DNA from: Escherichia coli
Lineage (GTDB): Bacteria > Pseudomonadota > Gammaproteobacteria > Enterobacterales > Enterobacteriaceae
Assembly (NCBI RefSeq): GCF_016026235.1
Contig: NZ_CP065613.1
Reading direction: 5' to 3' (one strand)
Length of the DNA stretch: 64,000 bases
The notes below the pieces were generated by a model. That model saw nothing but the letters and a program-made list of their open reading frames with translations. It was not told the origin of the DNA and ran no database searches. The number at the start of each line of letters is the position of its first letter. Position 1 is the stretch's first letter. Both the position numbers and the translations under genes were made by a program. Shown in pieces: positions 33,680-44,341 of the stretch.

Positions 33680-34054
33680 GGAGTTTACTCACATCTGACA
33701 AAATCAATATAAACAGCCCCTCCGGAGAGGGGCTGGAGAGTGGCGCTATGTGCCATTGCATGGTGCCGGGTGCCTCCCGGTGAATTCAGTACCAGCACCT
33801 GAATCCGCGATTATCCCATATACCTACTCGCTGATTGCCCCTCCGCACAGGGGGATTCACCATGCCAGTTTCTTTTAACAAACTCCCCGCAAACCAGACA
33901 ACAGTCAACCGCCTGAATTGTGAAGTATTTAAAAATTTCTCCCGCTAACTGATACCCGGCTAACAGTCTGGCGTTTTCTTTTTCAGCAACGGGAAAGCAA
34001 CAACCCTGTTATCGTGTCGTCTGCTCTTCCTGATAAGCTAATGGCGGTTTGTGA

Positions 34055-34130
34055 TGGTGGCCCTTGCTGGATTTGAACCAGCGACCTGGCGATTATGAGT
34101 CGCTCGCTCTCACCACTGAGCTAAAGGGCC
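34055..34130 (-). tRNA. tRNA with CAU anticodon (Ile2-type or Met)
   Basis: 76-nt cloverleaf: acceptor GGCCCTT/AAGGGCC, T-loop TTCAAAT, encoded CCA; close to recalled E. coli ileX. Confidence 0.85.
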
Positions 34131-40178: not shown

Positions 40179-40392
40179 CTCCCAGGCGTTTAAACATTTT
40201 TCCGGACTGAAACGCCACCAGCGGATAACTCAGGGTATGAGTACGTCCCTGAACCTGGCAGACAACCTTCTGGCTTTCTGTATTGACCAGGCAAACCCGC
40301 AGAACGTGGCCGTTGCTGGTGGTGAACCACTGCCCCACTCGGGGGCAACGGTTGTATCGGTGATACAGGGAATTAACGATGCGGCGAATCAT
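40159..40392 (-). CDS. hypothetical small protein
   Basis: 77 aa; ATGA-coupled to Rha stop. Confidence 0.35.
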   Translation of the reverse strand: MIRRIVNSLYHRYNRCPRVGQWFTTSNGHVLRVCLVNTESQKVVCQVQGRTHTLSYPLVAFQSGKMFKRLGGGYASV

Positions 40393-40952
40393 GGACGCAC
40401 CTCCTTGTCAGAACCATTCAGCCTGGAATCAACAAGTGCAGCACCAAAAACAGCATCACCTACACGGTCGTACAGTTTGCTGGCCAGCGGAGATTCAACA
40501 GCCTTAAGCATTGGGTAAAGCTGGCTTGTCCAGATTTGATGGATTTCACGCAAATGCAGGTATACGCCTCTGGCGTTTTGTGCGACAGATGACATGTCAG
40601 CCGCACCAGCTCCTGATAAGCTCCTCTCCATCTGGTTAAAGGCATTGATGTATGCCTCTTTGAACCGGGCGGCACGTTTACCAGTGAAGCCCATAGCAAG
40701 GAAGGCGAAGCCGTCGCGGGTGATTTGGTAGCAGGGAAGTTTGCGAGTACCGCCGTTGGGCTGGCGTACCAAAATTGATGTCTCCGCAAAATTGCGGGCA
40801 CAAAACTCTGGAGAACAATCCAAAATGCGGATCTTTTTCAGAACATCGTCATGACGTTTAGAGAAGAAGTTGGCAACAGCCAGGGATGAAGTAACAGCCT
40901 GACCATCAACGATGGCAATTTCAGGTTGAGTGAGGGTTGGGATCGTAGCCAT
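40389..40952 (-). CDS. Rha-family phage regulatory protein
   Basis: 187 aa from MATIPTLTQPEIAIVDGQ; C-terminus DGFAFLAMGFTGKRAARFKEAYINAFNQME. Confidence 0.7.
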   Translation of the reverse strand: MATIPTLTQPEIAIVDGQAVTSSLAVANFFSKRHDDVLKKIRILDCSPEFCARNFAETSILVRQPNGGTRKLPCYQITRDGFAFLAMGFTGKRAARFKEAYINAFNQMERSLSGAGAADMSSVAQNARGVYLHLREIHQIWTSQLYPMLKAVESPLASKLYDRVGDAVFGAALVDSRLNGSDKEVRP

Positions 40953-41264
40953 GATGGCAGCCTCTTTGGTGATTTTTAATAACTCACCACCAAAGCTTCT
41001 CACGGCAATAGGTGGTGAGACGTACAGGGGTGAGAAACCGGTCACCAAAGAACCCGGCCCAACCGAAGTTGGCCCTGCACGCCCCACCATAATTTGGGCG
41101 TAATGCTGCTCATGACACAAAAAAACCGCAAGAGCGCGGTTGTGCGCTTTGGTGAATTCCGGGTTCTCACGCCCGGCACCCGCTTTATAAGGTGCGGAGA
41201 CAGTGTAACGTCCCGAAATTGCAGAATCAATATCAAAATGTTGTAGCTGTGGACAACGCGAAGC

Positions 41265-41288
41265 CTTGTTGTTATTGTTTACAACAAG
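41265..41288. promoter_or_regulatory. palindrome CTTGTTGT-N8-ACAACAAG upstream of the 41307 operon
   Basis: Perfect 8-bp inverted repeat about 20 bp before GAGGAAG RBS. Confidence 0.4.
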
Positions 41289-41306
41289 AACCAGAGGAAG
41301 CTTTAA

Positions 41307-41594
41307 ATGCCATCCAGACTGTATAAACAGTTCATCCGTCATCTCGGTGAATCTGAATACATACGAATCCGCATATGGGAAGTGGAGCCTGCTGTATTGG
41401 GTAGCCAGCACAACTACAAATACAGCATGGCTTATGTCGTTGATGGCATGTGTGTGATGCGTTACGACAACGAACGGGGTAAAGGCGATCACAAACACAT
41501 TGGTAGTCAGGAAGTCAGCACCAGCTTTGTCACCATTGAACAACTGCTCGCTGATTTTCTGGCTGACGTTGAATCCATCCGCAGAGGTATCTGA
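41307..41594 (+). CDS. hypothetical protein, first gene of TA-like pair
   Basis: 95 aa; RBS GAGGAAG; stop 1 nt before next ATG. Confidence 0.6.
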   Translation: MPSRLYKQFIRHLGESEYIRIRIWEVEPAVLGSQHNYKYSMAYVVDGMCVMRYDNERGKGDHKHIGSQEVSTSFVTIEQLLADFLADVESIRRGI

Positions 41595-41595
41595 C

Positions 41596-41955
41596 ATGAG
41601 AACCGTAACAATCCGAATCGAGTCAATGGATAATTTCACGGCTGATGTGCTGTCTGCGTTCCAGGAAGCAGCTACCGGAGCAAAAGCAACCAGAGAAAAC
41701 GTTATTTCATTTCCTGACTGGCAAATGATGCATAAGGTACTGACACCAAAACGCATGGACATTCTGATGGCAATGACTGGTGCCGGAGAAATGTCCATCC
41801 GAAAAATTGCAGCCCTGGTTGGACGTGATGTAAAAAGCGTGCATACTGACGTGACCGCACTCATCAGCAACGGTTTACTGGAAAAAAGCGAGCGCGGAAC
41901 GTCATTCCCGTATGACGACATCCACTTTGATTTTACGCTGGGCAAGGCGGCGTAA
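41596..41955 (+). CDS. winged-helix DNA-binding protein, second gene of pair
   Basis: 120 aa; HTH-like MSIRKIAALVGRDVKSVHTDVTALISNGLL. Confidence 0.6.
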   Translation: MRTVTIRIESMDNFTADVLSAFQEAATGAKATRENVISFPDWQMMHKVLTPKRMDILMAMTGAGEMSIRKIAALVGRDVKSVHTDVTALISNGLLEKSERGTSFPYDDIHFDFTLGKAA

Positions 41956-42172
41956 TTTTTCGTATATACCGTGCCGTCATTCCGGCGGCGCTTCACACTC
42001 CACAAAATCACGCCTGAACAACCACAACGGGCTGAAACATTCGTACGGATAGCCGTCACGCAGGTAAATGACTCGCTGCGTTTCAGACTCCCAGCGTATA
42101 ACGTGGACACGACGCCCCCTTCCGTCACGGAACCAGCGATTGAGGACTTGCATAAATTACCCGTAAACATTG

Positions 42173-42886
42173 TCACACCTTCCAGCCAGTAGCCTGAAAC
42201 AGGCCCATTCTCGGGTGATACCAGCGGGTACCACGCTGAACGGCACCACACATCATGTGATGAAACGCCTTCAGAAACGGTTCCACAGCAACAATTTCAC
42301 GACGTGCCAGTAATCCATCTGGCGTCAAAAATTCATGAGTGTCTGTCGGGATGTTGTATGCATTTACAAGCGTGCGACATTTCGCATCTGACATACCGGT
42401 TTTTGCTTTCAGCTGGCGATATCCGGCATAGCCCTCTCGAATGGTACCCTTTTTGATTTGCTCAACTGTTTCGGCTACGTGGCTGATTTTTTCTTCCACC
42501 TGAGTGATCCGTTTCTGCTGACGAACAGCCTCGAGCGCCATTGCGGCCACCATTTCGATTTCGCTCATTGGTTTGCGGATCTGTTCTTCCAGTTCGCGCC
42601 AGCGATCTACCAGGCGAGCAGTGAATTCAGGACAGAGCTGTGCGACGACAATGATGCTGTCGCGCTTACCTTGTTCTCCTTCAAACAGGTAATGCTCATA
42701 TTGAACTTTAAAACCTAAGTTATTGATTCTTTCGGAAACCTCAATTTGAGGAGACCGGACAACGCCACCTTTGGCTAATGTTTCAATAGTGCGTTTCACA
42801 TTGTCATGACGCTTACCCACCAGTTCTGCGATCTCAACGCTGGTCATGGATGCTTTGTCGTTAAAAATTGCGGTGTTCACTGCCAT
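42173..42886 (-). CDS. phage antirepressor/Rha-like regulatory protein
   Basis: 237 aa from MAVNTAIFNDKASMTSVEIAELVGKRHDNVKR; GGAG RBS. Confidence 0.65.
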   Translation of the reverse strand: MAVNTAIFNDKASMTSVEIAELVGKRHDNVKRTIETLAKGGVVRSPQIEVSERINNLGFKVQYEHYLFEGEQGKRDSIIVVAQLCPEFTARLVDRWRELEEQIRKPMSEIEMVAAMALEAVRQQKRITQVEEKISHVAETVEQIKKGTIREGYAGYRQLKAKTGMSDAKCRTLVNAYNIPTDTHEFLTPDGLLARREIVAVEPFLKAFHHMMCGAVQRGTRWYHPRMGLFQATGWKV

Positions 42887-42999: not shown

Positions 43000-43293
43000 A
43001 TGAAAGTTCAGGCCGTTGGTTTATTCTGGTTTCGCGATGCGATTCAGTATCATGAGCTCAAAAATATTTTTACTGATGCTGATGTGCTCTCCGACAGTTA
43101 CACCGAGTGGAAACACGACGCTGAAAAATTGATTAAGCGTGTCGAAAGAAGCGGGCAACGAGTTATTAAAGTTGAAGCGGATACAGCCGAGTTCATCACC
43201 TGGTGTACAAGCGAAGGCATTGGACTCAATGCCGAAGGTAGAATGCAGTTCGCATCCTTTAAGGCTTACCAACAACTTCTCAGCGAACGCTAA
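43000..43293 (+). CDS. hypothetical protein
   Basis: 97 aa; strong AAAGGAGGT RBS; competes with antisense ORF 43021..43374. Confidence 0.45.
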   Translation: MKVQAVGLFWFRDAIQYHELKNIFTDADVLSDSYTEWKHDAEKLIKRVERSGQRVIKVEADTAEFITWCTSEGIGLNAEGRMQFASFKAYQQLLSER

Positions 43294-43573: not shown

Positions 43574-43684
43574 TCTTTAGCCTCACACCGGATACTCTGT
43601 TATCCAAGAATGTTAAACATGAGAATCCAAAGTATCAAGATATTCTGTTACTTTAGTATCAGCAGCCATGAAAGGAGAAGAAAA
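43574..43684. promoter_or_regulatory. divergent cro/cI promoter-operator region
   Basis: 111-bp intergenic with repeated GTATCA and CTGTTA motifs. Confidence 0.5.
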
Positions 43685-44341
43685 ATGAAATCTTTAGGTG
43701 AACGGCTAATCAACGCACGACAAAAAGCTGGGTTAACGCAAGATGCGTTGGCTAAAAAAGCAGGGGTCACCAGAGTTGCAATCAGTAAAGCCGAGCAAGG
43801 CCTTACAAAAAGTTTCAACGGTGACACCCTTTTTAAAGTCGCAGCTGCACTGCAGTGTTCACCGCAGTGGCTTCAGAACGGAGATGAGAAAGGTAAGCAT
43901 TGGGAAAATAATGTTAAGAGTTGCCCCCAGAGGGACACAGCACACTCTTACCCTGTAATTAACTGGGTTCAGGCAGGATTATTCACAACTGCAGGTGATG
44001 ACTACAACATGTATGATCAGGATAACTGGAGGCATTCTGTAAAATACGCTGGTGAGAGGGGGTTCTGGCTGGAAGTGCACGGAGACTCAATGACTTCGCC
44101 TATAGGAATAACATTTCCTGAAGGAATGTCGATCCTTGTCAACCCAGATAAAGAAGTTTTTTCAGGGTGTTACGTCATTGCCAGAAAAAAATCCACCAAT
44201 GAAGCAACATTCAAAAAATATATTTCTGAAATGGGAAAGGCGTTTCTAAAGCCCCTTAATCCACAATACCCAATCATAGAAATGGACAATGATTGCGAAA
44301 TAGTAGGCGTTGTGGTTGATGCCAGATGGGATATTTTCTGA
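43685..44341 (+). CDS. CI-like repressor (HTH plus S24 LexA-like peptidase domain)
   Basis: 218 aa; AGLTQDALAKKAGVTRVAISKAEQG HTH; HGDSM and K of catalytic dyad. Confidence 0.9.
   Translation: MKSLGERLINARQKAGLTQDALAKKAGVTRVAISKAEQGLTKSFNGDTLFKVAAALQCSPQWLQNGDEKGKHWENNVKSCPQRDTAHSYPVINWVQAGLFTTAGDDYNMYDQDNWRHSVKYAGERGFWLEVHGDSMTSPIGITFPEGMSILVNPDKEVFSGCYVIARKKSTNEATFKKYISEMGKAFLKPLNPQYPIIEMDNDCEIVGVVVDARWDIF

Follow-up and report, generated by a model that had tools for sequence, protein, structure and literature searches.

The stretch of DNA analyzed here (the window, 64,000 nucleotides in all) is Escherichia coli chromosome that carries a lambdoid prophage, and its subject of interest is a pair of short plus-strand genes, tumE (ORF1; ORF, open reading frame) and a tumA-like gene (ORF2), separated by a single base (41595) and preceded by two operator-like inverted repeats and a promoter (Table 1). 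We find that this pair is a self-contained toxin-antitoxin (TA) cassette of the TumE family, lying antisense in the prophage's early operon. A preliminary description made from the sequence alone had suggested a TA-like operon at this place, with a 95-residue product, a single intervening nucleotide and a 120-residue winged-helix product; the positions and strand of both genes and the one-base gap hold, and the second protein is 119 residues long. The proposed location antisense within the early-right operon is equally sound: the gene for a cI-type repressor is on the plus strand, and the early genes, among them the Rha-type and Ant-type genes said to flank the cassette, a cro-position gene, and O-like, DnaC-like and DnaB genes, are on the minus strand.

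Table 1. Features of the TumE cassette and its surroundings (window positions)
Feature	Position	Strand	Remarks
tumE (ORF1), 95 aa, putative toxin (TumE/DUF6516)	41307-41594	+	ATG 41307, TGA 41592-41594
tumA-like gene (ORF2), 119 aa, putative antitoxin/autorepressor	41596-41955	+	ATG 41596, TAA 41953-41955
Operator O1, TGTTG-N10-CAACG	41239-41258	+	weaker site; at -68 from ATG; overlaps -35
Operator O2, TGTTG-N10-CAACA	41267-41286	+	core of 41265-41288 palindrome; overlaps -10
Sigma-70-like promoter TGGACA-17-TATTGT, TG before -10	41250-41278	+	9 of 12 matches
Shine-Dalgarno sequence GAGGA	41294-41298	+	8 nt 5' of tumE ATG; read from sequence
Terminator-like hairpin spanning tumA stop codon, then T run	41933-41965	+	pattern search; within segment common to L003
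Mobile cassette, from O1 through promoter and both genes to terminator	41238-41972	+	blastn boundaries
isrK Hfq-binding RNA	41119-41195	-	Rfam RF01394, 63.6 bits (gathering score 50)
isrK terminator	41141-41124	-	terminator pattern search
C4 antisense RNA, equivalent to orf45 region of Gifsy-1 isrK locus	41008-41094	-	Rfam RF01695, 83.4 bits (gathering score 45)
Rha-type regulator/anti-repressor, 187 aa	40389-40952	-	from ATG 40952; phrog_821, E 2.5e-104
DUF4222 gene, 58 aa	41977-42153	-	phrog_1343, E 1.7e-32
Long minus-strand frame from ATG 42170	40389-42170	-	stop-free 40392-42296
Ant-type anti-repressor	42173-42883	-	
cI-type repressor	43610-44341	+	

Profile searches, the check that the preliminary description had proposed for both proteins, place each of them in a Pfam family. 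ORF1 matches TumE (PF20126, formerly DUF6516) over model positions 6-81 of 81 (E 2.4e-15) and phrog_16135 (E 2e-58), and an identical protein in complete E. coli genomes bears the RefSeq name 'toxin-antitoxin system TumE family protein' (WP_001141116.1). The residues that are invariant in an alignment of its relatives, H35, K38, Y39, G60, D61, H62 and H64, are all kept in the window protein; this cluster includes the toxin's nearly invariant YDNERGKGDHKH motif. An AlphaFold2 (AF2) model of the window TumE (predicted local distance difference test, pLDDT, 94.6) is a six-stranded antiparallel sheet with one C-terminal helix; a PDB sequence search with the toxin found nothing.

That the second gene product is a winged-helix protein, as had been described, is borne out by a match to Pfam HVO_A0114 (PF25212) over residues 34-109 (E 9.3e-25), accompanied by weak Pfam matches to MarR/ArsR-type winged helices and a match to phrog_11214; RefSeq calls the identical protein 'HVO_A0114 family putative DNA-binding protein' (WP_001300492.1). 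The protein consists of an N-terminal beta-alpha-beta module and a C-terminal winged helix, and its recognition helix spans residues 79-91 of the AF2 model, with residue 79 as its first residue. NCBIfam gave only sub-threshold winged helix-turn-helix (wHTH) matches to the partner, PADLOC-DB 2.0 just the generic wHTH parts of CasR/Csa3/CARF models, and a PDB sequence search an ArsR-type protein as its best match (E 0.1); a literature search on 'HVO_A0114' found no paper. We modeled the complex as TumE fused to its partner through a (G4S)5 linker, with 48 paired rows, and obtained a pLDDT of 87.5 and a predicted template-modeling score (pTM) of 0.83, the linker being disordered. For two domains on a floppy linker so high a pTM suggests a defined, confidently placed TumE-partner complex.

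The two genes travel together over a wide phylogenetic range. A database search yielded 114 clusters of 93-95-residue toxin relatives, all with PF20126 and mostly from Enterobacterales, and their alignment was used to scan 100,044 species genomes and IMG/VR. The genome scan found at least 513 stretches encoding toxin relatives; we kept 80 species-genome loci, 73 viral contigs and 9 other loci, and judged pairing by stop-to-stop distance. An HVO_A0114-type ORF lies directly downstream of the toxin ORF, on the same strand, in 160 of 163 occurrences, with stop codons 304-479 nt apart; the three toxin ORFs that lack it belong to loci cut by contig ends. Thus, the homologues do form a conserved pair, as the preliminary description expected, and in this clade the partner is always 3' of the toxin. 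The pair occurs in Alpha-, Beta- and Gammaproteobacteria, one cyanobacterium, Acidobacteria, Planctomycetes and Eremiobacterota, and it is found in lambdoid prophages, in P4-like satellites and in plain chromosome (in Rhizobium, between dnaB and alr). Within the TumE superfamily, the toxin-first form with a winged-helix partner seems to be a branch of wide distribution. Within E. coli the cassette is rare, being present in 20 of 5426 complete genomes, and a collection of deposited phages holds a single match in which both genes are labeled 'hypothetical'.

Upstream of tumE lies the inverted repeat CTTGTTGT-N8-ACAACAAG, whose arms (41265-41272 and 41281-41288) are 100% complementary and whose loop holds the -10 element of the cassette promoter; transcription would start near 41285. 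This palindrome, just 5' of the ribosome-binding site, had been put forward as the operator of an autoregulated operon. It is indeed one operator site, O2, and a second, weaker site, O1, had been missed. An 8+8 repeat and a promoter hit are, taken alone, within chance (the pattern search finds 2 promoter-like sites, compared with 1.7 in shuffled sequences), and the case is therefore made by comparison with other genomes. In a Stx1c prophage (locus L003; comparison loci are given as L numbers) the cassette has 77% DNA identity to that of the window and unrelated flanks, and both O1 and O2 are kept there in the shared design TGTTG-N10-CAAC(A/G); in L003 and most other loci the -35 element is a perfect TTGACA inside O1. 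When we scanned upstream of toxin genes for TGNTG-N10-CANCA with at most one mismatch, the motif was present in 59 of 140 distinct upstream regions, whereas dinucleotide shuffles averaged 7.8 and never exceeded 13; the excess was confined to a spacer of 10. With upstream regions anchored on the toxin's GKGDH motif, 101 of 135 distinct loci carry the motif and 69 have two sites; the O1-O2 distance is 28-29 bp in 49 of the 54 two-site loci that were aligned (28 bp in 33, 29 bp in 16).

The position of O2 differs between lineages. In most non-enteric loci the last base of O2 is also the A of the start codon (...CAACATG), about 7 nt past the -10 element, and a leaderless mRNA is therefore predicted for these loci; the enteric lineage that includes the window has gained a 21-nt leader with a Shine-Dalgarno sequence. 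The comparison thus predicts that the leaderless layout, with its start codon inside the operator, is ancestral.

The half-sites take one of two forms, TGTTG or TGATG, and within a locus both arms of both sites are alike. All 70 loci with TGTTG operators encode valine (66) or isoleucine (4) at residue 79 of the partner, and all 16 loci with TGATG operators encode phenylalanine (14) or methionine (2); the window protein has V79, within GRDVKSVHTDV. Across these 86 classified loci, alignment column 79 carries a mutual information of 0.693 bit with operator form, the full class entropy, and the next best column 0.358 bit. The TGATG class is scattered over Edwardsiella, Erwinia, Rhizobium, Bradyrhizobium, Sphingobium, a planctomycete and viral contigs; a neighbor-joining tree computed with the residue 83 column left out, noisy and indicative only, contains about six changes of operator class, and two M79 proteins are 76-79% identical to one V79 protein. 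Since operator form co-varies with the first residue of the recognition helix, we have good computational evidence that the partner, and no other factor, reads O1 and O2, and that the operon would be autoregulated. The idea of the palindrome as an autoregulatory operator is in this way strengthened, by its conservation as well as by its co-variation with residue 79. If correct, the residue-79 rule (V/I for TGTTG, F/M for TGATG) is a falsifiable rule of DNA recognition.

The TumE-TumA superfamily was defined by Durairaj et al. (Nature 2023; PMC10584680), who showed that six gammaproteobacterial TumE pairs are toxic in E. coli and neutralized by the partner, and that one toxin, from A. tepidum, lowers 35S-methionine incorporation. 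Combining this work with our comparisons, we propose, with considerable confidence, that the window locus is a type II TA system in which a TumE toxin is held by a co-transcribed winged-helix antitoxin, which represses their common promoter at two operators. The sigma-70 promoter would drive tumE and then, one base later, the 119-residue partner; the partner, presumably as a dimer, would bind two 20-bp inverted repeats, O1 covering the -35 and O2 the -10 element with centers 28 bp apart, and so repress its own operon, with residue 79 at the start of the recognition helix reading the third base of each half-site. The same protein would keep TumE inactive by direct binding. Free TumE, by analogy with the tested toxins, would arrest growth by blocking protein synthesis, acting via the invariant cluster H35 / K38-Y39 / D54-N55-E56 / G60-D61-H62-x-H64. 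Co-repression by the toxin may add to this control, and the pair may serve in prophage retention and/or abortive defense. The TA-like bicistron with a winged-helix partner that the preliminary description envisaged is supported by protein families, pair conservation, operators and context; its toxicity we infer.

Several points weigh against this interpretation. Toxicity of ORF1 is predicted from tested family members that have another partner and another gene order: in the tested pairs, all from subcluster 1a, the toxin gene is preceded by that of a small, RelB-like antitoxin (PMC10584680). An upstream partner is described as occurring 'predominantly' in clusters 1, 2, 4 and 6, and is thus typical of the superfamily, not defining (PMC10584680). 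The TumE family fold is alpha+beta, an antiparallel sheet of seven strands with two helices (PMC10584680), compared with the six strands and one helix of the window model. Searching the toxin against the NCBIfam hidden Markov models gave no match, and PADLOC-DB 2.0 gave no convincing defense model (best E 0.045). Finally, the putative toxin-partner interface is deduced from one value, the pTM of the fused model.

In a different reading, the partner is a transcription factor, perhaps acting also on the promoter of the neighboring isrK gene, and the 95-residue protein is a non-toxic cofactor or sensor. DNA binding by the partner is, judged from the comparisons, the best-supported step of the model, toxicity in this subfamily is argued by analogy with the tested TumE pairs, and O1 lies close to the isrK 5' end in every phage-borne lineage (44 bp in the window, about 34-48 bp in all of them), so that the antitoxin might influence isrK transcription. 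We nevertheless consider a non-toxic regulator improbable: all six tested members of the 95-residue protein's family stopped growth, its catalytic-looking His/Asp/Glu/Lys cluster is invariant across phyla, and the same operators are kept in Rhizobium and Burkholderiales, where isrK is absent.

The limits of the cassette follow from comparison between prophages. The Stx1c prophage L003, in which the cassette occupies another slot, shares with the window just positions 41238-41996 (blastn), while prophages with a RelE/helix-turn-helix (HTH) cassette or with no TA cassette share 40383-41233 and 41973/41984-42898; the left flank up to 41231-41233 is common to about 700 E. coli genomes. These limits therefore define a mobile unit of about 41238-41972, inserted between DUF4222 and the isrK promoter. 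In L004 (3453-3981) and L164 (2896-3457) the same slot is filled by a RelE/ParE toxin with an HTH antitoxin, and the presence there of an unrelated cassette indicates that the slot is a hot spot for TA or accessory cassettes. Because the window cassette has its own promoter and terminator, lies antisense in the repressed early-right operon and adjoins the isrK/C4 promoter, it would be expressed in the lysogen in the manner of a moron.

Such a setting invites the proposal that the pair is mainly an anti-phage abortive-infection module and not an addiction or stability module: infection or induction would shut off or overrun PtumE, the labile partner would decay, and TumE would stop translation. 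Its occurrence in prophages and P4-like satellites as a moron, equipped with a promoter and a terminator of its own, fits this proposal, as do the RelE/ParE-HTH accessory cassettes that fill the slot in other prophages and the convergent early transcription that would run head-on through the cassette upon induction. We nonetheless regard it as the minority view, as no PADLOC family corresponds to the toxin, the partner resembles just the generic CARF/Csa3 wHTH, and many copies of the pair lie in ordinary chromosomal contexts. The proposal concerns the role of the cassette rather than its mechanism, and it is compatible with our model of a TumE toxin restrained by its autoregulating partner.

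Other genes and RNAs were noted in these elements. Between the cro-position gene and the Ant gene, a 97-residue plus-strand ORF (43000-43293; phrog_4753, a family without assigned function; 'hypothetical protein' in RefSeq) is likewise oriented against the early-right operon, and the early-left region of a near-identical prophage encodes a RefSeq 'ParE family toxin-like protein' (L001 11491-11709). The nin region of the Stx1c prophage contains a match to sRNA-Xcc1 (L003 3826-3916), and the Salmonella P4-like satellite that carries a TumE cassette contains an int-alpA RNA (L007 6960-7027). Elsewhere in the window, Rfam detects MicL (59811-60118), STnc100 (33705-33894), a tRNA (34058-34130) and ES036 (55832-55874); given MicL near the right end, the DNA there is host chromosome.

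Two RNA genes that the preliminary description had overlooked, isrK and C4, lie within the 285 bp that separate the Rha start from the cassette. Together with the Rha gene, which is preceded by AAGAGG 8 nt 5' of its ATG, they constitute an RNA-controlled anti-repressor module of the P1 c4-ant / Gifsy-1 isrK-orf45-anrP type; the isrK-orf45-anrP arrangement is known from Gifsy-1 (PMC4825925). All the enterobacterial copies that we checked, whether in phages or in satellites, have isrK and/or C4 directly beside O1. A possible isrK promoter (TTGATT 41230-41225, 17 nt, TACACT 41207-41202, minus strand; 8 of 12 matches) has its -35 about 9 bp from O1, back to back with the TA promoter, and a weak a1/b1 target match was seen at 41208-41156. 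Such modules also occur in tandem arrays, with two to four isrK-C4-(Rha/Ash) modules of about 850 bp each standing head to tail, in a Serratia prophage (L005 1145-3902) and in L002, L004, L110 and L112.

This module is a source of systematic annotation error. The Pfam Phage_ASH match in the long minus-strand ORF (residues 349-444 of 620) falls exactly on isrK and C4, and because of this coincidence the family may largely reflect translated RNA genes. 'Rha' and 'ash' coding sequences (CDSs) predicted by the Prokaryotic Genome Annotation Pipeline (PGAP) and RefSeq run through isrK/C4 and reach 317, 373 and 383 residues (L001 5490-6443, L002 2213-3334, L166 1308-2459), and those in L001 and L002 also reach the antisense of tumE. 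In three genomes an intact tumE ORF is left unannotated because the over-extended Rha ORF overlaps its start. These omissions, together with the rarity of the cassette in E. coli, could be taken to mean that it is an inactive remnant. Such a status is very improbable: both ORFs are intact with every invariant residue kept, the operators, Shine-Dalgarno sequence and terminator are intact as well, and the missing CDS is an effect of annotation.

The minus strand opposite the cassette requires separate consideration. The preliminary description had noted a 620-residue ORF there (40389-42251) and dismissed it as only the antisense shadow of the plus-strand genes and the real Rha gene. The frame is present; from ATG 42170 it passes antisense across the entire cassette, crosses isrK and C4, and enters Rha in frame. 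A Pfam search of the ORF places Phage_pRha at residues 454-543 and finds no protein-family match over the cassette part, as expected of a shadow; the word 'only' is harder to maintain, since the stop-free state recurs in diverged lineages. Could the ORF instead be a real protein gene, and the plus-strand ORFs incidental? Its openness, the 317-383-residue 'Rha/ash' proteins that PGAP annotates into the region, and 143 extra N-terminal positions in the phrog_821 profile might be cited in favor. We give this idea hardly any credence, because both plus-strand proteins have strong Pfam matches and hundreds of relatives in genomes without the antisense ORF, whereas over the cassette no domain is found in the minus-strand ORF, whose 'Ash' match coincides with the isrK/C4 genes. 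Moreover, in its overlap with DUF4222, identity between prophages is 97-98% for the DUF4222 frame and only 71-76% for the long frame; conservation sits in the DUF4222 frame, and we rejected the long ORF as a conserved protein there.

What recurs is the absence of stop codons. The antisense frame is stop-free across the whole pair in the window group, L003, L005/6, L007, L012/L115, L103, L110, L111 and L112, which we count as nine diverged TumE lineages (toxin identity 67% in Serratia L005/6, 57% in the Salmonella satellite L007 and 52% in Edwardsiella L012/L115). In most of these the frame continues through isrK/C4 into the next gene, over 535-724 codons. The frame contains 3-5 stops, as expected, in L010, L011 and L014, close relatives located away from isrK/C4, and it is also closed in L015, L016, L104 and L109. 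Resampling synonymous codons from the window's own codon usage gave probabilities of zero stops of 0.007 for the window, 0.026 for L003, 0.045 for L005, 0.007 for L007, 0.02 for L012, 0.06 for L103, 0.12 for L110, 0.009 for L111 and 0.03 for L112. The same holds for the unrelated RelE/HTH cassettes of this slot, which are stop-free and in frame over 594 and 532 codons (probabilities 0.10 and 0.08). The open stretches span 2487-4268 in L004, 2149-3744 in L164, 3110-4909 in L005 and 3032-4759 in L007. Judged by these probabilities, the recurrent stop-free state looks too frequent for chance and thus selected; if anything, selection would act on openness and not on sequence.

The ends of the frame are consistent from lineage to lineage. 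In each, the upstream gene's stop codon marks the beginning of the open stretch, and an in-frame start codon follows a purine-rich run: ATG 42170 in the window follows GGAAGGTG and lies 2 nt past the Ant stop, and ATG 4741 in L007 follows GGAGG and overlaps the Bro-N stop. Coupling to the DUF4222 stop was considered and set aside, as just GTG 41996 with a too-close GGAG is available there and ATG 42170 is the better candidate. In strain NU14, where the slot is empty, PGAP annotates a 383-residue ORF that overlaps the ymfL stop; the long ORF of the window aligns to it at both ends, so that the cassette is a clean in-frame insertion of about 217 residues (~94-310).

A tentative proposal, which we think somewhat doubtful, is that TA cassettes are nested antisense in a long translated leader frame that is kept stop-free so that ribosomes can cross the ~730-bp insert. 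An untranslated antisense insert of 730 nt might be polar, or might uncouple translation, unless ribosomes cross it; the open frame could accordingly prevent polarity, or let ribosomes continue into the leader of the RNA-controlled anti-repressor. In P1, the effect of c4 is exerted by Rho-dependent polarity. Polarity as the reason is made less likely by the isrK terminator: the early transcript has to get past it in any case, which points to antitermination, and this would protect against Rho as well. In the known isrK mechanism, the anti-repressor is coupled to, and depends on, translation of a leader ORF (PMC4825925). If the proposal is right, about 650 bp would be read by ribosomes on both strands. 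If the open strand is selected, the insertion of accessory genes into phage operons would be constrained by translation of the opposite strand, with consequences for moron tolerance and for the controversy over overlapping antisense frames.

The gene family itself is known and the exact proteins are already named in RefSeq, so that assignment to the family adds little. Existing annotation does not cover the rule of operator recognition, the predicted leaderless layout of the ancestor, the constant adjacency to isrK/C4 and the stop-free opposite strand. The c4-icd-ant region of P1 and P7 is an immunity module; the likeness of our locus to it, as to isrK-orf45-anrP of Gifsy-1, lies in the cassette's left neighbor and not in the cassette itself. 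In the study of the Gifsy-1 module there is no description of a TA cassette 5' of the isrK promoter, or of an open frame that continues upstream of isrK (PMC4825925). The RelE/ParE-HTH cassettes of L004 and L164 share with the TumE cassette their insertion point, antisense orientation, toxin-first order and an opposite strand that is stop-free in frame, although both of their proteins come from unrelated families. HigBA, MqsRA and HicAB are toxin-first type II systems whose HTH antitoxins repress at palindromes overlapping the promoter, and the window cassette shares with them the toxin-antitoxin order and, on computational evidence, a DNA-binding antitoxin and palindromes over its promoter.

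The closest comparison is with TumE-TumA itself. A literature search for TumE/DUF6516 returned the founding paper, its preprint and passing mentions, among which was no tested member with an HVO_A0114 partner. The window pair has in common with TumE-TumA the TumE/DUF6516 toxin domain, the bicistronic arrangement, a predicted DNA-binding partner and a toxin fold predicted as an antiparallel sheet packed by a helix. It differs from the tested pairs in its toxin-first order, in a 95-residue toxin shorter than those tested (judged from their synthetic genes of 398-461 bp), and in a 119-residue HVO_A0114 winged-helix partner. The E. coli prophage copy offers an easy entry point to the toxin-first, winged-helix branch of the TumE superfamily.

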